Source of the DNA: Staphylococcus phage S6
Length of the DNA stretch: 64,000 bases
Direction: 5' to 3' (one strand)
Sequence record: LC680885.1
This document shows positions 1 to 17,235 of this stretch, one piece after another (position 1 is the stretch's first letter; every line of letters starts with the position of its first letter). A program made the position numbers and the translations under genes. Below the pieces are notes generated by a model. That model was given only the letters and a program-made list of their open reading frames with translations, had not been told where the DNA came from and did not search any database.

Positions 1-2
1 TG

Positions 3-131
3 CAAACTGGCATCGATATTCCTTCATTAGGATATAACCAAAAATTAGATGAAGCAACTATTATGAAAGCTAAAGAAAAAGAAATAGACTTAAATTATTT
101 TAGTTATATGAGTAATAGTTTAGTTAATTAA
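3..131 (+). CDS. 3' end of a CDS that begins upstream of the window (partial)
   Basis: Frame-3 open from window edge to TAA at 129-131; followed by a strong hairpin terminator. Confidence 0.3.
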   Translation, partial: QTGIDIPSLGYNQKLDEATIMKAKEKEIDLNYFSYMSNSLVN

Positions 132-139
132 TAATTATT

Positions 140-192
140 GCCATGTTAAGTTTATAGCTTAACATGGCTTTTATATATTTATTTTTTTTTTT
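140..192 (+). terminator. rho-independent terminator
   Basis: 11-bp stem gccatgttaag/cttaacatggc with 7-nt loop, followed by a 20-nt T-rich tract. Confidence 0.8.
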
Positions 193-221
193 ATAAAATA
201 AGATTGGAAGTGAAATGTTAG

Positions 222-1733: not shown

Positions 1734-1745
1734 ATTTAAAAAAAT

Positions 1746-1786
1746 GAGGTAACGGACAATTATAGTTCGTTACCTCTATTATACTG
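1746..1786 (+). terminator. putative terminator hairpin
   Basis: 9-bp stem gaggtaacg/cgttacctc; weak U-tract. Confidence 0.45.
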
Positions 1787-1806
1787 CAAAAACGTATCTA
1801 ATGATA

Positions 1807-1833
1807 TTTTAAATTTATATTATAATTATGAAG
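1807..1833 (+). promoter_or_regulatory. variant copy of the conserved AT-rich promoter-like motif (TTTTAAATTTATATTATAATTATGAAG)
   Basis: Shares TTAAATTTATATTATAATTATGA(A/G)G with copies at 48751 and 22403; followed by perfect 19-nt palindrome gttgataattattatcaac (1833-1851) then an RBS. Confidence 0.5.
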
Positions 1834-1877
1834 TTGATAATTATTATCAACTAATTTAAATAAAAGGATGATTTAAT

Positions 1878-2177
1878 ATGAATGAAATTAAAATAATGGA
1901 TACTGAACTACTACAGGAAGCTGTAGAAGGAAAAGAGAATAACGGTGGAGGTTACGAACATACTCGTACCGTTTTCGAATTCCAAGGAAAACAAGGAGTT
2001 TTCGAAGACACTTCTTGTGGTGATTTCGGTAGCAGATTCTTCATGGAATGGGATGGAAAAATGGCTATGTGGGGAAGTATGATTGATGAAGAACTCGAAT
2101 ACAGTGAATTCGATGAACAAGAACAATCAGAACTTCTAAAGCATTTTAGAGTTCCTGTTTTTGAAGAAACAATCTAG
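1878..2177 (+). CDS. small acidic protein (99 aa), monocistronic
   Basis: ORF with RBS aaaggatg; Asp/Glu-rich; own promoter-like motif upstream and a strong terminator immediately downstream. Confidence 0.6.
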   Translation: MNEIKIMDTELLQEAVEGKENNGGGYEHTRTVFEFQGKQGVFEDTSCGDFGSRFFMEWDGKMAMWGSMIDEELEYSEFDEQEQSELLKHFRVPVFEETI

Positions 2178-2212
2178 GACATTAATGTCCTAGATTTCTT
2201 TTATTTTTTTTC
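2174..2212 (+). terminator. rho-independent terminator
   Basis: Perfect palindrome ctaggacattaatgtcctag overlapping the stop codon, followed by tttcttttatttttttt. Confidence 0.85.
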
Positions 2213-2235
2213 TAAAAATATTCTATTTTATGATT

Positions 2236-2254
2236 AAATATATATTATAAAAAT
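2236..2254 (+). promoter_or_regulatory. conserved 20-nt promoter-like motif AAATATATATTATAAAAAT
   Basis: Identical core to copies at 4894, 9894, 28825, 51727, 54577; about 80 nt upstream of the first gene of the paralog array. Confidence 0.55.
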
Positions 2255-2334
2255 AGATGCAATTAAATATATTGAAAGATGTTGTTTTATATGTAAAGTT
2301 TTAGAAGAATTTAATAAGGGAGCTGAAATAGATA

Positions 2335-2817
2335 ATGATATATTACAAAAATAAAGTAAATGGTGAAATATACGAAGTTAATGATATTCATAGAAAAGAT
2401 GATGCATTTTATTATGTGTTTGGTAATGAATTTAAAAAAGAAAGAATAGGATTATATGAATCAGTGGGTAAAAAAATTGATTTATTTGATAAAGATAAAG
2501 GACATAAAGAATTAAACTTCCAATTAAATTATGACTCATCTAGATTATTTTTAGTTACACATATGAAATATGATAATAATAATCCTTTTGCACCTAAAGC
2601 AGTAGATTTAAAGAATCAAAATTTTGTCGCATCCGATTCTTCAGAAGATCTTTACTATATATTATATAAAAGAATGTGTAATGCAATAGATATACCTTTA
2701 TTAGATTATAATGTATTATTAAAAGAATTTAATTTTGATAATGAAGATATATTTAAAATAATATCAGAAGATTGTAAAGAAGTAAAAGATTTTAAAATTA
2801 GAAATCTTTTTAAATAA
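2335..2817 (+). CDS. paralog-array protein (160 aa), divergent tail ...CKEVKDFKIRNLFK
   Basis: N-terminus MIYYKNKVNGEIYEVNDIHRKDDAFYYVF is nearly identical to ORF 3545; C-terminal tail is related to the array consensus. Confidence 0.6.
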   Translation: MIYYKNKVNGEIYEVNDIHRKDDAFYYVFGNEFKKERIGLYESVGKKIDLFDKDKGHKELNFQLNYDSSRLFLVTHMKYDNNNPFAPKAVDLKNQNFVASDSSEDLYYILYKRMCNAIDIPLLDYNVLLKEFNFDNEDIFKIISEDCKEVKDFKIRNLFK

Positions 2818-2832
2818 AAGGAGAAATTTTAA

Positions 2833-3534
2833 ATGGAAAATATTAAATTGTATAAAAATCTAGAAAACGGTGATAAATTTACTTTATCTAAAGATGAAAT
2901 TAATAATGGTAGATTTCTTTATAAAGTCATGAAACAAATAAAAAGTAATTTTTATCCATATTATAATTATGAAGACCAACCCATTACAACCAATGGAAAC
3001 TCTTATTTAATTAATAAACAACTGAATTTTCATTTTTATACACATTCTGATATTATTATAAATTTTAAAAATTTAATTGGAATAGATGAAGATATAATAA
3101 TTAAGAGTAATGAAAATAAAGAAAGAAATATTTCATCTTCAATTGTTTGTTTCTCTGATTCTAATACAAATAATGATAGAATTTATGAAAATATATTTCA
3201 AATTGTTTTGAACACAAAAAAGGCTAAGAAAATAAATCGTATGCTAGATAAATATAAAAGCGATAAATATGAAATATCTTCTTATACAATGGATAAAAAT
3301 GAAGTAATTTTTAAAGTTAGTTTCAAACAAGATTATTTGTCTGATAAGAGTAATGACGCTTATGATTCTCTAGATGAATTGATATATTATATGTTAAAGG
3401 ACCTTAGAATTAAGATCGACAATTCGTATATGTATTTTATGGATTATCTAAGATGGAATTTGGAATTTATTGCTGAAGAAATTACTGATAAGGAAGAAAT
3501 TAAAAAATACTTAATTAAAGAAAAATTTAAATAA
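2833..3534 (+). CDS. paralog-array protein (233 aa) with conserved C-terminal tail ITDKEEIKKYLIKEKFK
   Basis: RBS aaaggag 8 nt upstream; C-terminal tail motif shared by the array. Confidence 0.6.
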   Translation: MENIKLYKNLENGDKFTLSKDEINNGRFLYKVMKQIKSNFYPYYNYEDQPITTNGNSYLINKQLNFHFYTHSDIIINFKNLIGIDEDIIIKSNENKERNISSSIVCFSDSNTNNDRIYENIFQIVLNTKKAKKINRMLDKYKSDKYEISSYTMDKNEVIFKVSFKQDYLSDKSNDAYDSLDELIYYMLKDLRIKIDNSYMYFMDYLRWNLEFIAEEITDKEEIKKYLIKEKFK

Positions 3535-3544
3535 GGAAGTGTAA

Positions 3545-4036
3545 ATGGATATGATATATTACAAAAATAAAGTAAATGGTGAAATATATGAAGTTAATAA
3601 TATTCATAGAAAAGATGATGCATTTTATTATGTATTCAATAATGAATTTAAAAAAGAGAATTCGTCTTTTTATAAATCTTATGGTAAAAAGATTGATTTA
3701 TATGATGAAGACGTAGGAATTATAAAATTGGAGTTTTTCTTAATTTATGATTTTATTAATCTTCATTTAACTACACACTTTTCTTGGGATTTTAATAATA
3801 TTCCTTTTATACCTAAAAATATAGAATTAACAAATCAAAATTTTGTCATATCAGACTCTTCAATTGATCTTTATTATTTATTCTATAAAAGAATATGTGA
3901 TGTGATAGATATAAATATGGCACATTATAATATTCCATTAGGAAAATTTAATTTTGATAATGGAGATATATTTGAAATAATATCAGAAGATTGCAAAGAA
4001 GTAAAAGATCTTAAAGTTAGAAATCATTTTAGATAA
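3545..4036 (+). CDS. paralog-array protein (163 aa), duplicate of ORF 2335
   Basis: MIYYKNKVNGEIYEVNNIHRKDDAFYYVF... and tail CKEVKDLKVRNHFR are paralogous to 2335-2817. Confidence 0.6.
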   Translation: MDMIYYKNKVNGEIYEVNNIHRKDDAFYYVFNNEFKKENSSFYKSYGKKIDLYDEDVGIIKLEFFLIYDFINLHLTTHFSWDFNNIPFIPKNIELTNQNFVISDSSIDLYYLFYKRICDVIDINMAHYNIPLGKFNFDNGDIFEIISEDCKEVKDLKVRNHFR

Positions 4037-4050
4037 GGAGATTGATAAAT

Positions 4051-4227
4051 ATGAGAAAAGAAATTAGAAAAAATGAAAGTAAACAATTGACTTTACAAGA
4101 AAAATGGGAAATTGATGCAGAATTATACAGAGAGAAAAATAAAGACAAGAAAAAAATAAAAGGGCCAATTATAGGAAAGAAAGTTTCTAAAGAAGAAATG
4201 GAAAGAATCTTAAAAGGAGAAGAATAA
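4051..4227 (+). CDS. small basic protein (58 aa)
   Basis: ATG at 4051 sits 10 nt after GGAG; the ORF track's TTG start at 4042 is too close to the RBS. Confidence 0.4.
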   Translation: MRKEIRKNESKQLTLQEKWEIDAELYREKNKDKKKIKGPIIGKKVSKEEMERILKGEE

Positions 4228-4228
4228 A

Positions 4229-4882
4229 ATGTTTAATCACAATATCTTACTATATAAACCTATTAGCATTGATTATAATGATTTTATTGAGTTAAACAAA
4301 GAAAAATATAAAAATGATAGAGAATATATTAAAATGATAAATGTATTTAACTTAATGGAACTGTTAAAAATAGACTCTTTTAAAGATAAAACTTTCTTTG
4401 AAACTGAATGTAAATTAAAATTAAGAGGTTATGATGAATATAAAAATATAAAAGTGGTTTACAATCAATCATTAGACAGTGATCCAATATTCTCTAATTT
4501 AAAAAACTTTAATGCAGAATTAGATATTATAAGTAAAGAAAGAGATAATACTTATATGACTGAAGAATTATTATATGAATACAATATGATGAAAATGAGC
4601 ACATGTATAAATGATAAAGCTAACACTATTACAATTAAAATAAAAAATTTCATTAATTCAAATAAAGAAAATTTTAATAACGATTTTGAATTCCTTATTA
4701 AAGAATTTGAAAATAATTTATTAAAGAATTTAACAGACCTCCATAAATATGAAGACTTACAACTTCTAATTAATAGTGAATATCACAGTTTAAAAGATAT
4801 TAGTGTATATAATGAAAAAATATTTAGACCTGCTACTGATAAAGAGTTTAAGAATTATTTAGTTAAAAAAGGATTTAGATGA
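4229..4882 (+). CDS. paralog-array protein (217 aa), tail ...TDKEFKNYLVKKGFR
   Basis: RBS aaaggagaag; conserved C-terminal tail. Confidence 0.6.
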   Translation: MFNHNILLYKPISIDYNDFIELNKEKYKNDREYIKMINVFNLMELLKIDSFKDKTFFETECKLKLRGYDEYKNIKVVYNQSLDSDPIFSNLKNFNAELDIISKERDNTYMTEELLYEYNMMKMSTCINDKANTITIKIKNFINSNKENFNNDFEFLIKEFENNLLKNLTDLHKYEDLQLLINSEYHSLKDISVYNEKIFRPATDKEFKNYLVKKGFR

Positions 4883-4893
4883 AAATATGTATT

Positions 4894-4913
4894 AAATATA
4901 TATTATAAAAATG
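4894..4913 (+). promoter_or_regulatory. conserved promoter-like motif AAATATATATTATAAAAATG + 5'-UTR hairpin
   Basis: Exact 20-mer; immediately followed by 13-bp stem gagataatgaatt/aattcattatctc (4913-4943), then RBS taggagagtg. Confidence 0.55.
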
Positions 4914-4975
4914 AGATAATGAATTAATATAATTCATTATCTCTATATTAATTTAATTAGGAGAGTGAAAAAGAT

Positions 4976-5584
4976 ATGGATTTAAAAGAGAATAAATTTT
5001 ATTATAATAAAGATATTAATGAGCTTTTTATAATTGGTAAGGATGAAAGTGATATTAACGATAAGATAAATAAATTCTATTATAAAAAATTATTAGAAAA
5101 AAATTTAGATTATCATGGTTTAATTAATAATCTTTATTATAATAGAAATATAAATTTTGATTTAATGGATGATGACGATATATATTTTAGTAATATGTAT
5201 AATGGAATTAGAGAATATATTAAGGTGAGTTATGTAGAATTTTCATGTACAAATTTTGAAGATAATGAAGTAATATTACAGTTAGATACTTTTATTGATA
5301 AAAGCAATGATAAAAATCTTTTAGAAGTTCATAAAGATTCGCATGGTGTTACCATAACAATGGTAAAAGGTTTTTATGAAAAAGATCTTATAAATTATAA
5401 TGAATACAAAAATATTTTAGACAAATTATCTGATCTGTTTGACACAATGCTTAAAGAAGAAAATGATGGAAATATTAAAATCTTTATAAATGATATTGAT
5501 ATATTTGAACCTTATGCATATTTTAGAGAGTTAGAAGACGAAAGAGGAATTAAAAATATTTTGGTTAAGAAAAATTTTATATAA
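4976..5584 (+). CDS. paralog-array protein (202 aa), tail ...ELEDERGIKNILVKKNFI
   Basis: RBS taggagagtgaaaaagatATG; C-terminal tail family. Confidence 0.6.
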   Translation: MDLKENKFYYNKDINELFIIGKDESDINDKINKFYYKKLLEKNLDYHGLINNLYYNRNINFDLMDDDDIYFSNMYNGIREYIKVSYVEFSCTNFEDNEVILQLDTFIDKSNDKNLLEVHKDSHGVTITMVKGFYEKDLINYNEYKNILDKLSDLFDTMLKEENDGNIKIFINDIDIFEPYAYFRELEDERGIKNILVKKNFI

Positions 5585-5598
5585 AGGAGATAGATATA

Positions 5599-6219
5599 AT
5601 GGATGTAAATGAATATATAAATAATCATGATTTTTATAGAGTTGGGAATGACGGTCAAGTATTTGTATTTAATAAAGATATATCAAAAGATGAATTAAAT
5701 TCTAAAATATTTACTAAATTATTTTCATGCGAAAATATAGGAATTATACTGTCTGAATGTGGTCATTATATAATAGATGGAAATAATATATTCTTAAGAA
5801 ATAATGATAAAATATTATTAGTCGAAAATATGACTATTGATATAAGTTTATTTAAAGATGATCTAATTGAATTAAATTTTATATTAAATATTGAATCTGA
5901 TCTTTATTCAAAAATTGGTCCTTTTGAAAAAGATAATCATGATCCTTTTTATTATTATAATACTATTATTCAAATAGAAAATAAAGATAACTTTCAACAT
6001 GAATTAATTTCTCATATAACAAATCATTTTAATAAAATGAGTGATGTTGATTTAATGCTTTTAACTACTAAAAATGAAATTAGATTTAATAAAGATTATA
6101 GTATTAATAAAAAATGTATTGATTTTAAATGTAATTTTAATGAAATTTATAAAATATTTAATAAATTAGAAGATGAAAAAGAAATTAAGAAATATATAGT
6201 AAGAGAAAATTTTAAATAA
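5599..6219 (+). CDS. paralog-array protein (206 aa), tail ...LEDEKEIKKYIVRENFK
   Basis: RBS aaaggag; tail motif. Confidence 0.6.
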   Translation: MDVNEYINNHDFYRVGNDGQVFVFNKDISKDELNSKIFTKLFSCENIGIILSECGHYIIDGNNIFLRNNDKILLVENMTIDISLFKDDLIELNFILNIESDLYSKIGPFEKDNHDPFYYYNTIIQIENKDNFQHELISHITNHFNKMSDVDLMLLTTKNEIRFNKDYSINKKCIDFKCNFNEIYKIFNKLEDEKEIKKYIVRENFK

Positions 6220-6232
6220 GGATAGAATAAAT

Positions 6233-6796
6233 ATGAATTTAGATAATATTGTAATATTAAAAAAGAAAAATGATGGTAAATTTGACAATAACAAATTTAT
6301 AGAATTTAATCATAATAATATTAATAATGATGAAATATTAAGTCTTTCTTTAATTACTCTATATACGAGCGTGTATGCATTTTATATAAAAAGTGATGTA
6401 AAACCTGACAATTTTGTTAGTTATTTAGCTAATTTTTATTTAGAAATAGATGGGCATTTAAAAGGACCTTTAAATATAACACATGATGAAAATAATAGAA
6501 TACTTATAATTTATAAAGGAAGACTACCACAAGATATTTTTGAGATTAGAGAATTTAACGTAAATACTAAATTATATGCATACTTAATTAAAGGTGGTAA
6601 TTACAATACGGTAGAAGATGATCTAATCAAATCAATAATCAATGGTTCAGAGTATATAATAAATAATGAAAGAATTAAGCCAAAAATTATTATTAATGGA
6701 GCATATAAGGATATTACAAATGTATTAAATTATTTTGAAAAACTTACTGATGAAAAAGAAATTAAAAAATATCTAATTAAAAAAAATTTTAAGTAG
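6233..6796 (+). CDS. paralog-array protein (187 aa), tail ...LTDEKEIKKYLIKKNFK
   Basis: tail motif. Confidence 0.6.
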   Translation: MNLDNIVILKKKNDGKFDNNKFIEFNHNNINNDEILSLSLITLYTSVYAFYIKSDVKPDNFVSYLANFYLEIDGHLKGPLNITHDENNRILIIYKGRLPQDIFEIREFNVNTKLYAYLIKGGNYNTVEDDLIKSIINGSEYIINNERIKPKIIINGAYKDITNVLNYFEKLTDEKEIKKYLIKKNFK

Positions 6797-6813
6797 AATA
6801 AGGAGGATTAAAT

Positions 6814-7437
6814 TTGGATAAGTCATTATATGTATCGGATATATTCGATGAGAAAGTTATAGGAAGAAAGGATCTTAATAAAGATGAACTTTTTGATTTG
6901 TCATTTAATACAATTTTAAATAATTCTGCTGACACTAGATTTAATAAAGAAGGAATTAGGTTAATGTTATCATTTTCAAAAGGATTAATTTTAAAATTTG
7001 ATTATGCAGACAAATATTTTTATGTGAAAGATTTTATATTTTTAATAGAAAAAGTTGATGGTAACTATGAATTTAATTTTACATTAAGTATTCCAGAATT
7101 TGCAGACAGTGAAATTGAAATTGAATTAGGAATTTTTGAATCGGATAAAGGTCATAGAGAATTTTATTTTAATGATTTTTCTTATTATAAAGAAGGAAAA
7201 ACTTTATTAGAAAGAGCTAAAGAATATTTAATATACGATATTTTTAATAATTATGGTGTTATTTTTAGTATTTTTTCATTAAAAGACAAAAATAGAATTT
7301 TAACAGACGATAATTTTATCATAGATAATAATGATATAGATGAATTTTATAGTCTAAAAAATATAGATAACGTATTTAGAGAAGTAACAAACGAAAAAGA
7401 AATTAAAGAATACTTAGTTCAGAAAGGATTTAGATAA
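6814..7437 (+). CDS. paralog-array protein (207 aa), tail ...VTNEKEIKEYLVQKGFR
   Basis: TTG start 7 nt after AGGAGG; tail motif. Confidence 0.55.
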   Translation: MDKSLYVSDIFDEKVIGRKDLNKDELFDLSFNTILNNSADTRFNKEGIRLMLSFSKGLILKFDYADKYFYVKDFIFLIEKVDGNYEFNFTLSIPEFADSEIEIELGIFESDKGHREFYFNDFSYYKEGKTLLERAKEYLIYDIFNNYGVIFSIFSLKDKNRILTDDNFIIDNNDIDEFYSLKNIDNVFREVTNEKEIKEYLVQKGFR

Positions 7438-7438
7438 A

Positions 7439-8050
7439 ATGAAAATAGACTTAGAATCTTATGAATACTATTACCATGATGAAGAAAAAATATTAGTTCC
7501 AGTATCATTAGATATGAAGAAAGAAAATGCAAATGAGTTAATGACGTTTGAATATTATAAGAAAGTTTTTAAAAGTTTTAATCATAATATATTTCATAAA
7601 AGAATTCATGATGATAATATACTATTTAGTACTCGATTAAATAAAGTGATTAACAAAAGTACTGGTATATCAATACCTACTTATGATTTATATATACATT
7701 TTGAAATAGATAACTCATTAAATATTATTTCCTTAGAATTAAGTTTTTCAATGGATACAAATCACTTTGATTTATTTAGAACATTCTATAAAGATAAAAT
7801 AGAAGTTATAAATTTTTCAAAGACAGATTTTTTAAAATATAATCAAAATGTAGATAATTTAGAAGATAAAATGGCATGTCTATTAGCTAAATTATTCTTT
7901 GATATGCACAATGATGAAAATGAAGATATTGAAATATATGTAGACAATTTTTACCATGAATCACTAGACATAGCTAAGCCATATAAATATTTTAGATTGA
8001 TGGGAGAAAAAGAAATAAAAAATCTAGCAACTAAAAAAACTTTTAAATAA
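7439..8050 (+). CDS. paralog-array protein (203 aa), degenerate tail ...MGEKEIKNLATKKTFK
   Basis: ATG overlaps the previous stop (translational coupling); tail motif. Confidence 0.55.
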   Translation: MKIDLESYEYYYHDEEKILVPVSLDMKKENANELMTFEYYKKVFKSFNHNIFHKRIHDDNILFSTRLNKVINKSTGISIPTYDLYIHFEIDNSLNIISLELSFSMDTNHFDLFRTFYKDKIEVINFSKTDFLKYNQNVDNLEDKMACLLAKLFFDMHNDENEDIEIYVDNFYHESLDIAKPYKYFRLMGEKEIKNLATKKTFK

Positions 8051-8107
8051 TTTAATTAACTTTCTTTTATATTAATAAATACAATGAAAGAGAGTTGAAT
8101 ATAATAA

Positions 8108-8887
8108 ATGTCTGAAACTAATGAAATTGATTTAATATCACAAATCAATGATATGATGGATGAATATAAGATGTTAGTAAAATTTAAAGATAAAATGGAA
8201 AATAAAGAAATTCAATTAGAAAATCGTATACAGGATTTAACTAAGAATTTGAAATATCCTAAACATACATTCGTATCTAATATGGAAGCTAACATTATTA
8301 GTGTAGAAAAAGAAATTAAAGACACTATTATGCAAATGAAAAATGTTAAAAAAGATATTATTGACTTAACTATGAAAGCTCAGAAAATGGCTGAAGATGA
8401 TGAATCTGAAGATAATTATAAAACTCTTGCTAAAAATGTACTTAATGAGCTTAATAATATGTCTAATAAAGATATTTTAAACAGTATGATGGAACCTGAA
8501 GAAGTAAATGATGAAGATACTGATTTTAGTGAAGAATTAGATGCAAAATTGTCACAATTAGATGAAGAAGAGAAATCTATTAATAAAGAAGTAGATCAAA
8601 AAGAAGAATTGAGTCAAGAAATTAATGAACTAGATCAACAAGATTTATCTTCTATATTAAAAGTCTATAAAGGTACATTACAATTCTTTGTTGTAGGAGA
8701 TTCTCCTGAAGAATATGAATTAGTAGTTGCTGATATGGATATGAATATTATTGAAGAAGATGAAATGGAAGATGAATACCCAGAATTATTTACTATGACT
8801 AGAGATCTTATCTTTGAAGATGTTGAAGGTAATGATGAAATAGTTAAAGATGAATTTGGAAATATTTATCAAAAAGCAGAATTTTAA
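8108..8887 (+). CDS. acidic coiled-coil protein (259 aa), not an array member
   Basis: Glu/Asp-rich with heptad-like repeats; interrupts the paralog array. Confidence 0.55.
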   Translation: MSETNEIDLISQINDMMDEYKMLVKFKDKMENKEIQLENRIQDLTKNLKYPKHTFVSNMEANIISVEKEIKDTIMQMKNVKKDIIDLTMKAQKMAEDDESEDNYKTLAKNVLNELNNMSNKDILNSMMEPEEVNDEDTDFSEELDAKLSQLDEEEKSINKEVDQKEELSQEINELDQQDLSSILKVYKGTLQFFVVGDSPEEYELVVADMDMNIIEEDEMEDEYPELFTMTRDLIFEDVEGNDEIVKDEFGNIYQKAEF

Positions 8888-8897
8888 ATTATTTTAC

Positions 8898-8940
8898 CCC
8901 ATAATATATTAATACAATATATTATGGGTATTTATTATAT
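8898..8940 (+). terminator. terminator hairpin
   Basis: 12-bp stem cccataatatat/atatattatggg, followed by tatttattatat. Confidence 0.6.
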
Positions 8941-8956
8941 ATGAAGGCTATGTGTT

Positions 8957-9322
8957 ATGGGATTTGAGTTAACGATATATGGAATAAATAAAAGTAAGCA
9001 AAGAGATTTACAATGGTATATTAATCATCATAGATATACTAAAGAGAAGAATCATTTATTTGAATTGGAATTATATAAACCACATGAACTTTTTGATGTA
9101 TTAAAATATAAAGTAATTAATTATAAAAATGAAGATGGTTTTGATATTCAAGTAATAGATGAAAATACTTTAAAAGAGTTAATGGAAAATGAATTAAGAG
9201 AAAATAATTTTGAATATGGCTTAACTCAATATTATGAACTTATGACTGAAATATCCAGAAATAAATATTTTATAAATAATGATAAATTTGATTTTTACCT
9301 AATTTTAGATACATCATTTTAA
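8957..9322 (+). CDS. hypothetical protein (121 aa)
   Basis: ORF only; weak RBS. Confidence 0.45.
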   Translation: MGFELTIYGINKSKQRDLQWYINHHRYTKEKNHLFELELYKPHELFDVLKYKVINYKNEDGFDIQVIDENTLKELMENELRENNFEYGLTQYYELMTEISRNKYFINNDKFDFYLILDTSF

Positions 9323-9343
9323 TAATAGGAGAGTGAAATAGAT

Positions 9344-9469
9344 ATGTTAAAAAGATTATACAATTTATTAACTAAGAAAAAATTTGAAAGAAGATTATAC
9401 GACTTTAGATTTAATTATCAAGATCATGAACATTTAAATCAAGTTCATAGAGATTCAAATAATATTTAA
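9344..9469 (+). CDS. small basic protein (41 aa), not in the ORF track
   Basis: ATG is 12 nt after taggagagtg, the same initiation-region sequence as genes at 4976 and 54654. Confidence 0.4.
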   Translation: MLKRLYNLLTKKKFERRLYDFRFNYQDHEHLNQVHRDSNNI

Positions 9470-9488
9470 TATGAAAGGATGATTATTA

Positions 9489-9890
9489 ATGCTATCAGAA
9501 TACAGATTAAATTCAAGTAAAGAAGACATTAAACAGCTATTAAGAGATTATGGTTTTAAAAAAGATTCTTATACTAAAGCTTTATTATATAGAAAACGTG
9601 TAACTGACCCAAATGATATTTTATTTATAGTGGCCGAAGTAGTTATTGAAACTAATTCAGATCTAGTTAAATTAAATTACTATGATAGTAAACATAATAG
9701 ATTTAATCCTTCTAATGAATCACCAGAAGTTCAAAAAGGTTTAAGTATATTAGAAGATATGAAAGAAAAAGAATTATTAATTGAACCAGAGTTAACTCAA
9801 AATGAAGAAGAAAAAGAAGTTCTTGATAGACTTAAAGAACAACGTGAAGAAATGGAAAATGGTCAAGTATCACCCAATTCTGAAAATTAG
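9489..9890 (+). CDS. hypothetical protein (133 aa)
   Basis: RBS gaaaggatg; acidic C-terminus. Confidence 0.5.
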   Translation: MLSEYRLNSSKEDIKQLLRDYGFKKDSYTKALLYRKRVTDPNDILFIVAEVVIETNSDLVKLNYYDSKHNRFNPSNESPEVQKGLSILEDMKEKELLIEPELTQNEEEKEVLDRLKEQREEMENGQVSPNSEN

Positions 9891-9893
9891 AAT

Positions 9894-9913
9894 AAATATA
9901 TATTATAAAAATG
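9894..9913 (+). promoter_or_regulatory. conserved promoter-like motif AAATATATATTATAAAAATG + hairpin
   Basis: Exact 20-mer followed by 12-bp stem atcccaatacta/tagtattgggat (9916-9945), then RBS aaaggag. Confidence 0.55.
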
Positions 9914-9970
9914 TTATCCCAATACTATTAAATTAGTATTGGGATTATTATAATAAAAGGAGTTAAGTAA

Positions 9971-10747
9971 ATGGAGAAAATTAAAAAATACTACATTAGT
10001 AAATCGAAAGATGAATTTATGGAATTAACTTTCAATGAAAATGAAACACTCTATTTTGACTTTAAGTGGAAAGTTTTAAGTGAGCTATTCACTACAATGC
10101 AAATAAATTATAATAAGAGATTTCTTATATCTCATGAAGAACATGATGACAATGGTTTAGTTGGTCTTAGAATAAATTTCAATGCTTTTCCCACAGTTAA
10201 ATACAAATATAAGGGTAAGAAAAATAAAATGGAACTTCTTATATACGCTATAATACGCTTTAGTCTAAATGAAGAAGACGATAATTATATTAAGTTTAAA
10301 GCTGTTCCTTTATATAATAATAGTGAAATAGGGAAAAGATTATTTAGTAAAAGATCTGGTATATTTGATGATAATGGTGAACTAAATTTACCGCATGACT
10401 TTAATGAAGAAGTTATGATTCGTTTTTTAAAATATTTTAAAAGTCATATACAAAAAGGTAAAAGACCTTTAGAACTCAAGGATGATTTACACAAGATGTT
10501 TACTACTACAAATAAATTAATTTTTGAATTACTAGATCAGATACAAGATCATTCAGATATTGAATTTCTTATTGCACCCGATTGGGATTTTAGTGGTAAA
10601 GAAATGGAAAAAGAAAAAGGTTTTAGTTTTGAAAAAGAATATGATAAGTATATCAGTTTAAATGATTTCGATGTTGATGCATATTTTAGAGAAATAACTG
10701 ATGAGAAAGAGATTAAAAAATTTAAAGTTAAGAAAGGATTTTCCTAA
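9971..10747 (+). CDS. paralog-array protein (258 aa), tail ...ITDEKEIKKFKVKKGFS
   Basis: Tail motif; HSDIEFLIAPDWDFSG segment is paralogous to 12346 and 13144. Confidence 0.6.
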   Translation: MEKIKKYYISKSKDEFMELTFNENETLYFDFKWKVLSELFTTMQINYNKRFLISHEEHDDNGLVGLRINFNAFPTVKYKYKGKKNKMELLIYAIIRFSLNEEDDNYIKFKAVPLYNNSEIGKRLFSKRSGIFDDNGELNLPHDFNEEVMIRFLKYFKSHIQKGKRPLELKDDLHKMFTTTNKLIFELLDQIQDHSDIEFLIAPDWDFSGKEMEKEKGFSFEKEYDKYISLNDFDVDAYFREITDEKEIKKFKVKKGFS

Positions 10748-10748
10748 T

Positions 10749-11567
10749 ATGAAAAATAATACAAAATATTTTATAGATAAAAAAAGAGATGAATTAATTG
10801 AAATTGATAAAGAATATCTTAATCGATATGAGTATATTGCACACGTATTAACTGTCATTGATATGAATAAGCTTTTATATATTGAAGATCATGCTAGATC
10901 CTTTATAAATGGTATTAATATTGAAGAAAATGATGTGGGAAATGGATTGACTTTTAATAATATAGAAATTCATAATAATATCCATTTCAAAAATATAAAT
11001 AGTAAAAATAATGCGTATAAAAATTTTAATACCGATTTTTATATAAACTTCTTTATTGATAGAATGGATAAAGTTAAAACTCAGAATTTTAAGTTAAAAT
11101 TTAATTTTTATAATTCAATATATAAAGAATATTTTAATAAAATTACCAATAATTTATTAAATGAAGATAATTTAGTCAATGAAGGAGTAAATAAAGAAAT
11201 AAGATCTCTTATGAATTTTGAATTATTTAAAAAAGAGTTATATAATACTAAATACAATAATAGTGAATATTTAAATCTTTTTGAAAATTCATCATATATG
11301 AAGGACAATGTTATTGGATTTATAAATAAATTTGAAGGATTATTTTCTAGTGTAATATACCAAAATAACCTTAGTGTATTAATGACTCTTTATGAAATAA
11401 AATACATGTATGAAGATGACATAGATTTTTATATTAATTTTTATAATGAAAATTATGGTTTAGTTAATATATTAGAATTAATCGAAAGTGATGAAAATGA
11501 TTTATTTAAAGAAATTAAAACAGAAAAAGAAATGAAAGCGTTTAAAGTTAGAAAAGGATTCAAATAA
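10749..11567 (+). CDS. paralog-array protein (272 aa from ATG 10749), tail ...IKTEKEMKAFKVRKGFK
   Basis: Likely start is ATG 10749 (MKNNTKYF), 2 nt after the previous stop; the track's start at 10701 overlaps the upstream gene. Confidence 0.55.
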   Translation: MKNNTKYFIDKKRDELIEIDKEYLNRYEYIAHVLTVIDMNKLLYIEDHARSFINGINIEENDVGNGLTFNNIEIHNNIHFKNINSKNNAYKNFNTDFYINFFIDRMDKVKTQNFKLKFNFYNSIYKEYFNKITNNLLNEDNLVNEGVNKEIRSLMNFELFKKELYNTKYNNSEYLNLFENSSYMKDNVIGFINKFEGLFSSVIYQNNLSVLMTLYEIKYMYEDDIDFYINFYNENYGLVNILELIESDENDLFKEIKTEKEMKAFKVRKGFK

Positions 11568-11588
11568 TATAAAGAAAGGATTTTTGTA

Positions 11589-12329
11589 ATGGAATATAAT
11601 AATTACTATAGATATAAATTAGATGGAAAAATACTTCACTTTGATATGGATAGAACTGATTTACGTAGAGATAAATTGGCTGAAATATTTACTAAAGTTA
11701 AGATGGAATATATTTATAAAGATAAAAAAATGATTAAAAAAGCAAGAAACTTTATTTACCGATCTAATCTTTCTTTAGAGTATTCTCATTTTAAAGATAA
11801 AGTATTTGTAATCAAACAAATTTCTAAAATGCTAAGTAAAAACAATGTAAGGGATTTATTAATTTACGATACGGATCTTAGTTTAGAATTTAATTCTATT
11901 TTAGACGGTGGTATATTTAAAAAAGATTTTCCAGAAGGATCCTTTTATGAAAAAATAGAAAGTAATATGAATAGAAAATATTTAATTTTAAGTGATAATA
12001 TAAGACACACTAGTGAAAGTTTTGTTGATTTATATGATAAAGATTATATTTTAAATTTTGAAGAAGTAGAATTGCTAGTCAAAGAATTTAATAAAACTCT
12101 TTTAAATTATCTTATGGATTTAATGAGTTATGGAAATCTAGAATTAAAAGTTAGAAAATCGGAGTTAGCATATTTTATGACAGGAATATATACAAAAATG
12201 GAAGAAAACGAAGATAAGTTATTCCCTATATTTGATTATAAATTTTTACTTAATGAATCTGGATTATTTGAAGAGATTACAGATGAGAAAGTTATTAAAG
12301 AATATTTAGTGAAAAATAATTTTAAATAA
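11589..12329 (+). CDS. paralog-array protein (246 aa), tail ...ITDEKVIKEYLVKNNFK
   Basis: tail motif. Confidence 0.6.
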   Translation: MEYNNYYRYKLDGKILHFDMDRTDLRRDKLAEIFTKVKMEYIYKDKKMIKKARNFIYRSNLSLEYSHFKDKVFVIKQISKMLSKNNVRDLLIYDTDLSLEFNSILDGGIFKKDFPEGSFYEKIESNMNRKYLILSDNIRHTSESFVDLYDKDYILNFEEVELLVKEFNKTLLNYLMDLMSYGNLELKVRKSELAYFMTGIYTKMEENEDKLFPIFDYKFLLNESGLFEEITDEKVIKEYLVKNNFK

Positions 12330-12345
12330 AAAGGAGATCAATGTA

Positions 12346-13128
12346 ATGAGTATAAATAAAAGTCATAAAAAATATTTTTTGAGTAAAATGACAGATGATT
12401 TATTTGAAGTTACTAACTTATACAGATATAATATAAATGAAGATTATTTATATCTACCTCAATTACTTTCTAATTTACAAGTAAAAAGTAATGAAGAAAT
12501 AAATATACTTTCTGAAGAGATTGTTGGTAAAGATGATAATGGAGAGAATTTATGGTCAGGAACTATATCAGCTGGATATATTTTTCCAGTTATCAAATAT
12601 AATGTTAATAATAAAAAGACAACGAATATACTTATTATTGATTTTGATATTATTTTCAACGAATCAATAGAAAATGAAAACTATTTAAAAGTTAGAATTG
12701 AAAATCCATACTCTTCAGGTATAAATTCAATAATTTTTAATAGCGTTATTGGCAATATATTAGATGAATCCAATTCTTTAAAAGTACCTTTTAGATTTCA
12801 TATAAATAGCATGGAAGATTTAATATCAGATTTTAATAATGGTACAGAAAATGATTTTAGAAATAATAAAGATTTATACCAAATATTAGTTGAAGTAAAT
12901 AGTTCTATATTGGAAATTTTATCACAAATTAGAGATCATTTTGATATAGAATTCTTTGTATCAGATGGTTGTTTCTCGCACATACCAGAGAATGATAAAA
13001 GAGATAATGATGATATAGATGATAAATACTATAATTTATTTGACGAGTATAAAATGTCTGGAGTATTTGAAGAGATTACAGATGAAAAGATTATTAAAAA
13101 ATATTTAGTGAAAAATAATTTTAAATAA
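12346..13128 (+). CDS. paralog-array protein (260 aa), tail ...ITDEKIIKKYLVKNNFK
   Basis: RBS aaaggagat; paralog of 13144 (MSINKSHKKYFLSKMTDDLFEV vs MGVIKSNKKYFLCKINDELFEV). Confidence 0.6.
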   Translation: MSINKSHKKYFLSKMTDDLFEVTNLYRYNINEDYLYLPQLLSNLQVKSNEEINILSEEIVGKDDNGENLWSGTISAGYIFPVIKYNVNNKKTTNILIIDFDIIFNESIENENYLKVRIENPYSSGINSIIFNSVIGNILDESNSLKVPFRFHINSMEDLISDFNNGTENDFRNNKDLYQILVEVNSSILEILSQIRDHFDIEFFVSDGCFSHIPENDKRDNDDIDDKYYNLFDEYKMSGVFEEITDEKIIKKYLVKNNFK

Positions 13129-13143
13129 AAGGAGATTAATATA

Positions 13144-13941
13144 ATGGGTGTAATTAAAAGTAATAAAAAATACTTCCTATGTAAAATAAATGATGAATTA
13201 TTTGAAGTTGATAAGAACAATAGAGATTCATTTTTATATGACTATTTACCTTTAATAATAGCTGAAAAAATAATTAATTCAACTGAAAAAGATTCATATG
13301 AAACTAGTGCATTGGATGTTTATTATAAAAAAGAAGATAACATAATTGAAGGGAATTTAAAATTTTTAGCAAGATGTTTACTTCCCGTCCTGTATAATTT
13401 CAATAATAAAAATTCATTTAAAACAGTTATGACTATCGCAGATTTTAAATTTAAAAGAGATGCTAATAAATCTACTTTTAGTATAGATAAAAATAGTGTT
13501 AATGATAAAATACTATTTCAAATGAGACCTTTAGGAAATGAAATTGATGATATTTTATTTAATAGTATTATAAGTGACCTTTTAAATGAAAATGACGAAA
13601 TAGAAATGAAACAAATGTTATTAATTGGTAATTTTGAAAAATTGTTAAGTGAAATTGATAATCAAAATATAAAACATCATGATGATTTTAAAATTTTAAT
13701 CAAAGATATATTCAATATTTATCTTAATTTATTAAACTCATTAAGTCATCATTTTAATATTGAATTTTTCTTTTCTGAATCTTCTTTTCTAGACATGTTA
13801 AATATTTATGATTATGATATTATTAATAATAAAGATAGTTATAAAATAAATATTTTTGAAGATGATTTAGATGGAATATTTGAAGAGATTACAGATGAAA
13901 AATTTGTTAGAGAATATTTAGTGAAAAATAATTTCAAATAA
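13144..13941 (+). CDS. paralog-array protein (265 aa), tail ...ITDEKFVREYLVKNNFK
   Basis: RBS aaaggagat; paralog of 12346. Confidence 0.6.
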   Translation: MGVIKSNKKYFLCKINDELFEVDKNNRDSFLYDYLPLIIAEKIINSTEKDSYETSALDVYYKKEDNIIEGNLKFLARCLLPVLYNFNNKNSFKTVMTIADFKFKRDANKSTFSIDKNSVNDKILFQMRPLGNEIDDILFNSIISDLLNENDEIEMKQMLLIGNFEKLLSEIDNQNIKHHDDFKILIKDIFNIYLNLLNSLSHHFNIEFFFSESSFLDMLNIYDYDIINNKDSYKINIFEDDLDGIFEEITDEKFVREYLVKNNFK

Positions 13942-13997
13942 AATTAAAAATTTATAGTAACGGAAATATATTTATCAATAGGAGTTGAAACTGGATA

Positions 13998-16733
13998 ATG
14001 AAGATTAAAAGATTAAAGTTAAAGAATTTTATCGGTATTTATGCTGGTATGGGATTAAAAGAAGTTGAAATTGATTTTAGTAAAAGTAAAAATAATATGA
14101 TTATGCTTCTTGGAGATAACGCTTCAGGTAAGACGACAGTTATGTCTAATCTTAATCCATATAGAGAAACTAATGATCAACGTAAAACTATAGTATTAGA
14201 AGATGAAAAAGGTATAAAAGAGATTGATTATATTAAGGGTAATGATGTTTATGAAATTAAACATCATTATGGTAAAAACAGTTCTCAAAATAAATCATTC
14301 ATTAAGAAAAATGGTGAAGAACTTAATGAAAATGGTGGTATTAAATTATTCAATGAAATAGTAGATAAAGAATTAGGTGTATCTAAAGAATACTTTACTG
14401 TAGGTCGTTTAGGCGATAACGTATCAAACTTCATTGACTATACTACAGGTGATCGTAAATCATATATCAATAAATTTGTACCTAATATTGATAGATACTT
14501 AGAAGCTTATAAAGTAGCTAATGAGAAATTAAAAATTATTACTAAAGATTTAAAATCACTTAGATTTGATTTAGACAAATATAAAGAATTTGATGAAATC
14601 AAAAAAGAAAAAGAGAATTTAGAAACTTTAATTGATCAATTACAAAATGAACTTGATGAAGCTAATAAAGATAAAACAACTCATGAAACTAAAATGAATT
14701 CTATCATGGAAGATAAGTACAAAGAGATTCATCCAACTGAATATAAAAATCAATTAATTAATGAAATTAATGAACTTAATCAAGAATTAGAAAAAGAAAG
14801 AAAGTTAAAAGAAGATAATGAGAATTTAAATAAATATACTATTGAATCCGCTAATGAGAAAAAAGATAAAATAGATACTATATTAAATAATACTAATAAT
14901 GAGTTGACTTCTGTTGAAAAAGATAAAGAGAATAATCAAGATAAATTAGATGATTTAATCAGTAGAAAATCTAAAATAGAATCTCGTATGAATGCTATCA
15001 AATTTAATGAAGATTATGATGCTTCTGATGAAATTGATTCAATTCTTGAAGGATATAAAGAAGATTTAGAAGGTATTAAAGATGATGTAGATATTTCTAG
15101 AGGGTCTTTTGTAAGTGAATTCGGTTTACAAATTAAAGATAATATTAAAGAGGATTCATTAAGATTATATGTAAATGATTTAATTTCTAAGGTAGATAAT
15201 TTTAAAGAATTTATTAATGATAATGAATTTAAATATGGTTCTATTCGTGGAGATTTTGAAAGTGAAATTAAAGATAATAATGAAAAAATTTCTATGAACC
15301 AGAATGAATTTAATGAAATTAATACTAAGCTTAATCAAATTAAAGGCAAATCAGACTTATTAAAAATATTAGATCAAAAAGATCATGATCACTATAATGA
15401 ATGTGTATTTGTTCCTTTAGTAGCTGACTTTAAAGACAATGAATTTGATTCAATCTCTGAATTAGAAAATAAAGGTAATCAACTTTATAAAGATAATCAA
15501 GAATTAGAAAAAGATAATAAATTATTATCTAATCATATTGACTTATTACGTAAATTTAATGACATACTTACTAGTAGAAATAGTTTAATTGAATATATTG
15601 GTTTTGAAATGATTGATATTGATAGTATTGAAGAAATATTTACAAATGGTAATACATTCTCTAGTGAACTAAATAGACTTAATTCATTAATTGAAAAGAC
15701 AAATGAAATTCGTACTAATGAAACTAATAGAGATAAATTGACTATTGAATTAGAGAGAAAAGAAAATGCTCTTAAAGAAGATTATTCTAATAAGAAAATA
15801 TTAGATCAATATAAAGAAGATAAAGAAGATTTAGTTAAACAAATTGAAGAAATTAAAAATAAAAATAATGAAATTTCTGAGAATCTTAATTATCTTAATG
15901 GTCGTAAAGAAAAAGCAATTACTAACTTAAATATTATTAATGAATTTATTAATCTAACAGAGAGATCTGAAGAAATTAAATTAAAAATGAAAGATAAAAA
16001 TGATATAGTTGATGACATTGATAAGGATCTTTCAAAATTAAGTAATTTATATGAACTTAATCAAAAAGCAGACAATAAAATTCAATCTATTAAAGATAAT
16101 TTAACTATGAAGAAAAATGATTTAGAATCTACTAAAGAAAAATACTTTGCAGTTAATTCTATTATTACTAAGATTGATGAAATTGAATCAGTGTTATGGA
16201 AATATAATATGGTGGTAGATTCATTAAATCCTAAGAAAGACTCTATACCATTAATATTCATTACTAATTATCTTAAAGATATTGCAGTAAGTACTAATGA
16301 ATTACTTTCAGTTGCTTATAATAATTCATTTAAAATTGACTTTGACTTAACAGATAAAGATTTCTTTATTAATGTGTATAAAGGTAATGGAACTGAGCTG
16401 AAAGATATTAAAGAAGCTTCTCAAGGAGAAACAGCTTTAACTAATATTAGTTTATCTTTATCATTATTAAACAAAGTATCTCAAGATTATAATATTCTAT
16501 ATTTAGATGAAATGGATTCAACGTTAGATTCTAATAATAGAAGAAGATTTGTTGATGTAATTGATAGACAAATTGAATTAATGGGTCTAGAGCAAGTATT
16601 CTTAATTAGTCATAATGATGAATTCTATAGTGCTAATATTGACTTAATTTTACTTAAAGGATATGAAAGTAAAATTGATATTAATAATGAAGAAATGATG
16701 CAAGGTAAAAATGTATTATTTAAAGTAAACTAA
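13998..16733 (+). CDS. SbcC/Rad50-like recombination/repair ATPase (911 aa)
   Basis: N-terminal Walker A LLGDNASGKTT; about 600 aa of coiled coil; C-terminal ABC signature ASQGETALTNISLSLSL followed by Walker B/D-loop ILYLDEMDSTLD. Confidence 0.85.
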   Translation: MKIKRLKLKNFIGIYAGMGLKEVEIDFSKSKNNMIMLLGDNASGKTTVMSNLNPYRETNDQRKTIVLEDEKGIKEIDYIKGNDVYEIKHHYGKNSSQNKSFIKKNGEELNENGGIKLFNEIVDKELGVSKEYFTVGRLGDNVSNFIDYTTGDRKSYINKFVPNIDRYLEAYKVANEKLKIITKDLKSLRFDLDKYKEFDEIKKEKENLETLIDQLQNELDEANKDKTTHETKMNSIMEDKYKEIHPTEYKNQLINEINELNQELEKERKLKEDNENLNKYTIESANEKKDKIDTILNNTNNELTSVEKDKENNQDKLDDLISRKSKIESRMNAIKFNEDYDASDEIDSILEGYKEDLEGIKDDVDISRGSFVSEFGLQIKDNIKEDSLRLYVNDLISKVDNFKEFINDNEFKYGSIRGDFESEIKDNNEKISMNQNEFNEINTKLNQIKGKSDLLKILDQKDHDHYNECVFVPLVADFKDNEFDSISELENKGNQLYKDNQELEKDNKLLSNHIDLLRKFNDILTSRNSLIEYIGFEMIDIDSIEEIFTNGNTFSSELNRLNSLIEKTNEIRTNETNRDKLTIELERKENALKEDYSNKKILDQYKEDKEDLVKQIEEIKNKNNEISENLNYLNGRKEKAITNLNIINEFINLTERSEEIKLKMKDKNDIVDDIDKDLSKLSNLYELNQKADNKIQSIKDNLTMKKNDLESTKEKYFAVNSIITKIDEIESVLWKYNMVVDSLNPKKDSIPLIFITNYLKDIAVSTNELLSVAYNNSFKIDFDLTDKDFFINVYKGNGTELKDIKEASQGETALTNISLSLSLLNKVSQDYNILYLDEMDSTLDSNNRRRFVDVIDRQIELMGLEQVFLISHNDEFYSANIDLILLKGYESKIDINNEEMMQGKNVLFKVN

Positions 16734-16769
16734 AATTTGTTATTAAAAATTTGAGAGGAGTAGATCTAT

Positions 16770-17057: not shown

Positions 17058-17074
17058 AAAAGGACGGTTTTATA

Positions 17075-17227
17075 TGGATAAAAAGAAATTATGGATATTG
17101 ACAGGTATAACTTTTTTAACATCTCTCACAGTAAATTTCATTATTTTATATTATAAAGATAAATATAAAATGGATGATATTGATACAGCAGAAGATCCAT
17201 TTATGAAAGGTCCATTATTTATATAAT
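17075..17227 (+). CDS. small membrane protein (50 aa), not in the ORF track
   Basis: MDKKKLWILTGITFLTSLTVNFIILYY... has one predicted TM helix; RBS aaaggacgg; followed by a strong terminator. Confidence 0.4.
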
Positions 17228-17235
17228 TTAAATAT

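Follow-up and report, generated by a model that had tools for sequence, protein, structure and literature searches.

The gene array and its C-terminal tail

The 64,000-nt stretch of Staphylococcus phage S6 DNA analysed here (LC680885.1; hereafter the window) carries a tandem array of 14 genes on the + strand (2335-13941), whose products of 160-272 amino acids (aa; n = 14) end in a shared C-terminal tail of 15-17 residues. The 14 open reading frames (ORFs) of the original prediction were all present, with the starts and ends that it had given. Members 1 (2335-2817, 160 aa, ...SEDCKEVKDFKIRNLFK) and 3 (3545-4036, 163 aa, ...KEVKDLKVRNHFR) are paralogues with 68% identity, and both have a divergent tail. 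Around them lie member 2 (2833-3534, 233 aa), which ends in ...EEITDKEEIKKYLIKEKFK, and member 4 (4229-4882, 217 aa), which ends in ...ATDKEFKNYLVKKGFR. The next group comprises member 5 (4976-5584, 202 aa, ...FRELEDERGIKNILVKKNFI), member 6 (5599-6219, 206 aa, ...LEDEKEIKKYIVRENFK), member 7 (6233-6796, 187 aa, ...LTDEKEIKKYLIKKNFK), member 8 (6814-7437, 207 aa, ...VTNEKEIKEYLVQKGFR), which has a TTG start, and member 9 (7439-8050, 203 aa, ...LMGEKEIKNLATKKTFK), which is 29% identical to member 5. Further downstream are member 10 (9971-10747, 258 aa, ...FREITDEKEIKKFKVKKGFS) and member 11 (10749-11567, 272 aa, ...FKEIKTEKEMKAFKVRKGFK). The start of the latter is the ATG directly after the preceding stop codon and not the overlapping upstream ATG at 10701. 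The array closes with member 12 (11589-12329, 246 aa, ...FEEITDEKVIKEYLVKNNFK), member 13 (12346-13128, 260 aa, ...FEEITDEKIIKKYLVKNNFK) and member 14 (13144-13941, 265 aa, ...FEEITDEKFVREYLVKNNFK).

The genes are tightly packed and coupled, as had been proposed, with gaps of 1-21 nt except at the promoters, and with ribosome-binding sites (RBSs) of the AAGGAG type after the stop codons. In the abutting pairs 6814->7439 and 9971->10749, the Lys-Gly codons AAAGGA double as the RBS of the next gene. The proteins are soluble in character, and none of the 14 contains a long hydrophobic stretch. The net charge of the body is negative in every member (-3 to -23) and the tail is basic; the last 12 residues carry a net charge of +1 to +4, with I, Y, L, V and F interspersed.

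The tail consensus, ...F.E(I/L)TDEKEIKxYLVKxNFK-COOH (one written form is ...TDEKEIKKYLVKKNFK), ends the 14 + strand ORFs and no other ORF of the window. We searched a hidden Markov model (HMM) of the last 20 residues against the 633 six-frame ORFs of the window. Independent E-values ranged from 1e-7 to 2e-11 for twelve array ORFs and from 0.03 to 0.12 for 2335 and 3545; the match that ranked after these (0.36) was not located at a C-terminus. Because only the 14 array ORFs matched at their C-termini, the shared tail noted in the original prediction is far beyond chance and exclusive to the array within the window. The very last residue is variable (K, R, S, I, E or L).

The codons of the tail vary freely (ACT/ACA, GAA/GAG, TTA/CTA/TTG, GTT/GTA/GTG, TAT/TAC). 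Among the ten members that could be aligned without gaps over the last 20 codons, the proportion of synonymous differences between paralogues (pS) was 0.57 and that of nonsynonymous differences (pN) 0.26 by the Nei-Gojobori method. For residues common to two tails, the codon is also identical in 67% of cases, compared with 69% predicted from the codon usage of the window. The mean DNA identity of the tails is 63%, and it reaches 90-94% only in the recent trio 11589/12346/13144 and the pair 2335/3545. In the tails of orthologues, pN is also far below pS. The tail is thus kept by selection on the peptide, not on the RNA or the RBS. The possibility raised earlier, that the tail merely reflects the nucleotide constraint of the downstream RBS, is rejected on two counts, the saturation of synonymous sites and a level of codon sharing that codon usage alone predicts.

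Bases 1-20000 matched only nine Staphylococcus jumbo phages in megablast, namely UFV_DC4 (97% identity), PALS_2 (95%), MarsHill and Madawaska (91%), PB50, Machias, SA1 and AH12 (83-85%), and LY01. These nine are kin of the Bacillus phages AR9 and PBS1 and have two multisubunit RNA polymerases. The window phage is an AR9/PBS1-like Staphylococcus jumbo phage, nearest to PALS_2 and UFV_DC4. The GC content of the DNA is 20-27%. The nine phages have a common, syntenic gene order, running from the gene for the N-terminal part of the β' subunit of the virion RNA polymerase (vRNAP β'-N) through an SbcC-like ATPase and DNA polymerase to the portal. The array occupies the space between the vRNAP β'-N gene (222-1733; PHROG 2986) and the SbcC-like gene (13998-16733; PHROG 77), which is annotated as "virion associated" in sister phages.

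As originally described, genes that do not belong to the family break up the array at 8108-9890. The largest encodes an acidic protein of 259 aa (8108-8887, + strand), a homologue of AR9 g142 (31% identity over 213 aa, E 2e-6). The two small genes that follow on the same strand (8957-9322, 121 aa; 9489-9890, 133 aa) are conserved like core genes. To these we add a basic 61-aa ORF (4042-4227, + strand), which is not a member and corresponds to a 58-aa coding sequence in sister phages. AR9 g142 is among the most abundant late transcripts of that phage (0.76, 166 and 7042 fragments per kilobase per million at 5, 20 and 40 min) and has an AACA-N6-TA promoter; the gap upstream of 8108-8887 has TACA in place of AACA. 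A 97-aa ORF just after the SbcC-like gene (16764-17057, + strand) has a tail-like end, ...KIKKEVIKDTFK, which lies below the HMM threshold. Its counterparts end in ...KVKNAFI (MarsHill), ...VVKNAFK (PALS_2) and ...TVTNTFM (SA1).

Body sequences, predicted fold and extent of the family

The original prediction regarded the members as held together only by their C-terminal peptide. Alignment revealed a second common element at the N-terminus, (K)YY/YF-x-K-x-x-(D/G)-E-(L/I)-x-E-(V/I), so the tail alone does not join them. After removal of the tail, BLAST clustering of the 119 members that ten genomes contain yielded 12 main groups and three singletons; members 10, 13 and 14 fell into one group. 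Profile comparison of the tail-less bodies with hhalign linked this group with that of member 11 (10749) at a probability of 95%, and the groups of 5599 and 6814 at 87%.

AlphaFold models were obtained for two members whose subgroups could not be aligned (hhalign probability 0.2%). The model of 12346 (m14c208299f43; 22-sequence alignment) had a predicted local distance difference test score (pLDDT) of 82 and a predicted template-modelling score (pTM) of 0.84; for 4976 (md8c352e00cf8; 13-sequence alignment) the values were 83 and 0.81. The order of elements was the same in both, ββ-α-β5/6-α-β-(α)-β-α. An N-terminal β-hairpin is followed by a helix, an antiparallel meander of five or six strands, a long helix, a strand, a short helix, a further strand and a C-terminal helix. 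The tail accounts for the last strand (F-x-E-I) and the C-terminal helix (EKEIKKYLVK).

Foldseek searches of BFVD led from these models back to the family. The 12346 model matched its own group and then proteins of 202, 245 and 215 aa at probabilities of 0.87-1.0, and the 4976 model matched a 206-aa protein (TM-score 0.60), followed by proteins of 200, 215, 223, 265 and 264 aa. Their lengths and percent identities indicate that they belong to other subgroups, in PALS_2, MarsHill, Machias and SA1. The matches were reciprocal across at least seven subgroups (probability 0.87-1.0, TM-score 0.25-0.60), and neither model matched anything significant in BFVD beyond family members. No sequence-profile or fold match to a chain in the PDB was obtained. 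The idea of unrelated variable bodies consequently has to be revised, since two models from unalignable subgroups share their element order and their neighbours in BFVD are other subgroups. From these models we conclude that the array members are probably highly diverged paralogues of a single family, whose fold resembles no recognised one, and not a set of different effectors bearing a common tag.

The family was, as suspected, unrecognised. The 14 members had no significant match in Pfam-A, PHROGs v4 or NCBIfam 20 (best E-values 0.05, 0.002 and 0.013, respectively, with single-member matches only in PHROGs), and the same scans were negative for ten further tail-bearing proteins of PALS_2. 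Word-indexed searches of 5.8 billion proteins gave 16-19 clusters, and a full HMMER search of 1.84 billion representatives gave 19; all of them had both the N-terminal motif and the tail. Every named source was a Staphylococcus jumbo phage, and the remainder were fragments from sequence archives. With tblastn, the family was found in only 9 of 50,697 phage records. In IMG/VR, degenerate patterns for the tail and the N-terminus matched 143 times, about the chance level by a rough estimate, and no match was confirmed. The syntenic loci of AR9 and of Listeria phage LPJP1 did not contain the family. All array members are annotated as "hypothetical protein" in the phage records, and the family is unmentioned in the genome papers on MarsHill/Madawaska/Machias, UFV_DC4 and PALS2, in a 2021 comparative study of jumbo phages and in a 2026 review. 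The family is thus undescribed, and it is confined to the Staphylococcus jumbo phage clade and a few related metagenomic fragments.

For a genome-wide count of tails, the PALS_2 genome was assembled from seven pieces. The tail HMM matched 26 ORFs at E<1e-3, 13 within the array and 13 elsewhere. The exclusiveness of the tail to the array therefore holds inside the window and does not extend to the PALS_2 genome. The ORFs outside the array include six tandem proteins of ~150 aa (PALS2_076-081), as well as PALS2_124-126, 191-193, 196, 070 and 183; a looser tail pattern raised the total to 37. The C-terminal residues of the PALS_2 ORFs reflected this abundance, with F at position -2 in 56 of 252 (4.4-fold enriched), V at position -6 enriched 3.4-fold and K at position -1 enriched 2.7-fold. 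All 37 tail ORFs lay on the + strand and none was among the 63 ORFs of the - strand, which include the structural blocks (p = 4e-5). An aromatic pair within the first 18 residues went together with the tail (odds ratio 10, p = 2e-8).

A further PALS_2 protein with a tail-like end (...YLVSRIFI) is PALS2_188 (L013 30376-32439, outside the window), which has 687 aa and is annotated "RNA polymerase omega subunit family". Homologues were confined to the nine Staphylococcus jumbo phages, with only 29-36% identity in Machias and SA1, and the omega annotation looks wrong. The possibility that it is a conserved core protein with an acquired tail was rejected, since it is another clade-restricted, highly variable protein.

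Early promoters and cassette turnover

The early promoter of AR9 has the consensus AAATATATATTAT-(6N)-G+1, derived from 41 mapped early start sites (Lavysh et al. 2017, PMC5312081). Early transcription in AR9 is independent of protein synthesis, which points to an injected virion RNA polymerase (PMC5312081). The promoter-like motif described earlier at 2236, 4894 and 9894 proved to be the exact 13-mer AAATATATATTAT, and these three positions are the only long intergenic gaps of the array. The array is thus divided into three blocks, with one exact AR9-type early promoter ahead of each. Promoter P1 (2236-2248, + strand) has a predicted +1 at 2255, which is an A instead of the consensus G; P2 (4894-4906, + strand) and P3 (9894-9906, + strand) match the consensus exactly, with G as the +1 at 4913 and 9913, respectively. 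Three further exact copies of the 13-mer lie in the window, at 28825, 51727 and 54577. The same early motif has been reported ahead of 29 MarsHill genes in the MarsHill paper. The late motif AACA-N6-TA was not seen in the intergenic sequences of the array. Because its promoters are identical to those read early by the AR9 virion RNA polymerase, the array is predicted to be early and non-structural. In PALS_2, the tail-bearing + strand genes were no nearer to early promoters than other + strand genes (p = 0.33). A scan for sigma-70-type promoters was uninformative in DNA of 21% GC (179 matches, compared with 162 expected).

Hairpins, on the + strand in and around the array, lie near promoters and gene ends. 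A terminator-like hairpin (2171-2196) closes the upstream gene (1878-2177) ahead of P1, and another (8898-8928) follows the gene at 8108-8887. A 14-bp stem-loop (4913-4943) begins at the predicted +1 of P2, and a 12-bp stem-loop (9916-9945) begins at +4 of the P3 transcript. A stem-loop begins at, or at most 3 nt from, the predicted +1 after five of the six exact early promoters of the window (4913-4943, 9916-9945, 28844-28870, 51746-51761 and 54596-54622). With their T-runs, the hairpins at 4913 and 9916 also score as intrinsic terminators for the preceding block, which at 4913 is the P1 block. In Firmicutes, hairpins at the 5' terminus shield mRNAs against RNase J1. The AR9 paper (PMC5312081) mentions a motif, left unexplained, in the 5' untranslated regions of early transcripts.

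The array turned over much more than its surroundings. The SbcC, DNA polymerase and β' proteins are 95-100% identical in UFV_DC4, PALS_2, Madawaska, MarsHill and LY01, and the orthologue identities across the array are mosaic. Member 4 (4229) is 100% identical in Madawaska and 44% identical in MarsHill, an allele swap beside flanks that are 97% identical, and 4976 is 100% identical in UFV_DC4 and 72% in PALS_2. The ratio of nonsynonymous to synonymous substitution rates (dN/dS) in orthologue comparisons was 0.2-0.8 for the bodies, mostly 0.3-0.65, compared with 0.05-0.15 for the core genes and the three interrupting genes relative to MarsHill, and up to 0.35 relative to the more distant PB50.

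High identity between genomes breaks off either in the tail, 30-71 nt ahead of the stop codon, or just past the N-terminal motif, 53-65 nt downstream of the start codon. The 12346 cassette is flanked by direct repeats of ~150 nt, which consist of tail, RBS and N-terminal codons and are ~90% identical when an offset of 2-3 nt is allowed, as judged by eye. PALS_2 lacks exactly one repeat unit, namely this cassette. In UFV_DC4, one extra member is inserted at the tail of 13144, after member 14. Between members 11 and 12, the segment 11572-11589 (+ strand) is a tail remnant, with the sequence AAGAAAGGATTTTTGTAA (K K G F L stop). It corresponds to the last 18 nt of an alternative allele that PALS_2, Machias and AH12 carry, which ends in ...KVKKGFS stop. 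This relic, also found in MarsHill and LY01, is a recombination scar. The copy-number variation that synteny had been expected to reveal was evident among the ten genomes, which have about 7 to 15 members. Given the breakpoints in tails and near starts, and the repeats, the conserved ends act as recombination patches. These patches exploit the conservation of the ends and do not explain it.

Several other features of the region deserve mention. Polymorphism caused by mobile elements occurs near the array (window ~1724-1733 and 17350-19071; L002 9771-11480). In PALS_2, a 1.7-kb insertion (569-aa ORF PALS2_199) follows the vRNAP β'-N gene and is missing from the window. The DNA polymerase gene is intact in the window and is split by HNH/homing-endonuclease inserts in PALS_2, PB50, Machias, Madawaska and LY01. 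On the - strand, two adjacent paralogous ORFs (33213-34013 and 34176-35147) have a common C-terminus, GKFKGQYVYVP.GKSNG.G.RIG.AWGTFS; the corresponding PALS_2 genes bear the annotation of amidase lysins, and two lysins are also named in the title of the SA1 paper. The window has a single tRNA gene (51161-51232, + strand; 67.7 bits with Rfam), whose equivalent in PALS_2 is annotated as tRNA-Asn. According to the MarsHill paper, tRNAs are degenerating in this clade.

Interpretation and comparison with known systems

We give somewhat more than an even chance to the reading that the array is a lineage-specific tandem expansion of one very divergent, early, host-directed family with a constant N-/C-terminal module. 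In each member, an α/β body that evolves fast lies between an aromatic β-hairpin motif at the N-terminus and a basic tail of strand and helix, with F-x-COOH as its end. The injected virion RNA polymerase is predicted to transcribe the three blocks right after infection. The conserved gene ends, made up of tail, RBS and N-terminal codons, serve as homology patches at which recombination deletes, duplicates and swaps whole cassettes between related phages. From the solubility of the proteins, the lack of hydrophobic segments, the acidic bodies and the basic tail we infer a cytoplasmic location. There, the proteins may serve as early effectors directed at the host, in host takeover or anti-defence. 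The variable body would engage changing host targets, and the constant module might be a common structural clasp or the binder of one common partner. The family probably reaches well beyond the array; in PALS_2, the same tail is present on at least 26 non-structural proteins.

Several observations weigh against this reading. The shared fold derives from predicted structures with shallow alignments (13-22 sequences), the Foldseek scores include the amino-acid similarity of the conserved ends, the TM-scores across subgroups were only 0.25-0.60, and the two models were compared by the order of their elements. Apart from the two links given above, all subgroup pairs stayed below 20% in hhalign, which is insensitive with shallow, AT-rich alignments. 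Some tail-bearing proteins of PALS_2 lack the N-terminal motif and are too small for a fold of ~200 aa, as in the 75-aa PALS2_183, so the tail may be a portable module. The high dN/dS of the bodies fits diversifying selection and, equally well, relaxed constraint. Early expression is deduced from promoter identity with a Bacillus phage, and several conserved neighbours (g142, the vRNAP β'-N gene g145 and SbcC g139) are late in AR9. Read-through or unrecognised late promoters could also give late expression of the array.

The tail might instead be an autonomous C-terminal docking or sorting peptide for one receptor, attachable to unrelated bodies, with the array as its largest group of clients or adaptors. 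The receptor could be a chaperone, a site of assembly or export, or an AAA+ unfoldase or protease of phage or host origin; as candidates, the phage genome annotations include a MoxR-like AAA+ ATPase, a metallopeptidase and GroEL. Such a peptide would account for tails on PALS_2 proteins of 75 to 395 aa, some of which lack the N-terminal motif and are clearly of another, coiled-coil-like composition. It is also consistent with the much stronger constraint on the tail than on the bodies, with the basic character of the tail on acidic bodies, and with its position, always exactly C-terminal with F at -2. However, about half of the tail-bearing proteins also have the N-terminal motif, and the predicted fold is common to subgroups, so common descent explains most occurrences. 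In addition, AlphaFold places the strand and helix of the tail at pLDDT 76-90, as if packed on the body, and the variable last residue is unusual for domains that read a carboxylate. We regard an autonomous docking peptide as possible and clearly the less probable account. In its broadest form, the tail would be a portable address on roughly 15% of the phage proteins, all early and non-structural, read by one receptor. The receptor would be encoded by the phage or the host and might be a chaperonin, the scaffold of a replication factory, or an AAA+ unfoldase or protease. This form is rather doubtful. Were it true, the arrays would be an adaptor library that brings host proteins, such as defence factors, to one machine, a bacterial-virus counterpart of the F-box or PRANC adaptors, and recombination at the tag would drive the shuffling of cassettes.

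Packaging into the virion, one of the options offered by the original prediction, now has the least support among them. The tail would be a capsid-targeting signal and the proteins would be ejected with the DNA, like the internal proteins of T4, whose loci are known to be hypervariable. The position of the array between a virion-RNA-polymerase subunit gene and the "virion associated" SbcC-like gene fits this idea. Nevertheless, exact early promoters stand before each block, with no late consensus seen between genes, and an AR9-type early promoter argues for early host-directed functions and against packaging. The tail ORFs of PALS_2 all lie on the early, non-structural strand, with none in the structural blocks. 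Published liquid chromatography-mass spectrometry of UFV_DC4 virions, though very shallow (15 proteins, 26 peptides), contained none of UFVDC4_00025-00042. Packaging thus seems improbable. We think it more improbable still that the C-terminal helix, which is basic and partly hydrophobic, anchors the acidic bodies on the anionic Gram-positive membrane or on nucleic acid, in the manner of the C-terminal amphipathic helices of MinD and FtsA. The charge of the last 12 residues, their interspersed I, Y, L, V and F and their C-terminal position on acidic, soluble proteins would suit such an anchor. On a helical wheel, however, the hydrophobic residues (I, Y-L-V, F) spread over ~200 degrees and do not share one face, the contiguous Y-L-V resembles a buried segment, and AlphaFold packs the helix on the body. 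We give least credence to the notion that a DNA or RNA signal (RBS, terminator or recombination site) or gene conversion keeps the tail, rather than any function of the peptide. The tail does lie 1-21 nt before the next start, AAAGGA is the next RBS at two junctions, recombination breakpoints do fall in tails, and tail DNA is 90-94% identical in the three most recent paralogues. Against this stand the saturated synonymous sites (pS 0.57) with amino acids retained, codon sharing of 0.67 against 0.69, and the 63% mean DNA identity. The reading frame and the distance from F to the stop codon are invariant, and dispersed loci encode the same peptide in other codons and ahead of other downstream contexts.

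Staphylococcus jumbo phages are therapy candidates and are able to transduce host DNA, and most of their genes have no known function. One family now covers about 14 genes of the window and 26-37 per genome in relatives. It also supplies a rule for annotating new isolates, an N-terminal aromatic hairpin combined with a C-terminal ...EKE(I/Y)KxxxVKxNFK. The bodies evolve several-fold faster than the flanking core genes, which together with cassette turnover is a hallmark of host-conflict genes. A search for new activities against S. aureus, in anti-defence or host shut-off, would therefore best start with the array. Experimentally, the invariant tail offers a handle, either as a tag to be transplanted or as bait for a partner.

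Large viruses are known to carry lineage-specific multigene families in their hyperplastic regions, and the unusual feature here is the invariant C-terminal tail, which appears to mark a sizeable share of the predicted early proteome. The zinc-ribbon family of Bacillus phage G (~35 copies; Iyer et al. 2021, PMC7824862) likewise has dozens of paralogues in one giant-phage genome. Expansions of that type are likewise restricted to one lineage, and their function is unknown or presumed to be regulatory or conflict-related (PMC7824862). The AR9/PBS1 early genes resemble the array more closely in their setting, with the same promoter, AAATATATATTAT-N6-G, the same two multisubunit RNA polymerases and the syntenic vRNAP β'-N ... 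SbcC order. AR9 differs in that its syntenic locus lacks the family and holds only about 3 kb of late genes. No Bacillus phage record was matched by tblastn with an array member, and the early cassettes appear to be an insertion and expansion specific to the Staphylococcus clade.

The internal proteins and hyperplastic regions of T4 are hypervariable, recombination-prone loci that encode small, non-essential host-conflict proteins. Their packaging signal is N-terminal, is cut by the prohead protease and directs the proteins into the head. The array is similar in having a short conserved terminal peptide on otherwise divergent proteins. It differs in that the peptide is C-terminal, the promoters are early and nothing points to packaging. 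The ankyrin/PRANC families of poxviruses are host-range proteins with variable target-binding bodies and a short conserved C-terminal motif that plugs into one cellular machine, and they are rapidly gained and lost between strains. The array proteins have no ankyrin or F-box-like domain in Pfam and belong to a virus of a bacterial host, so the analogy with these families is functional only.

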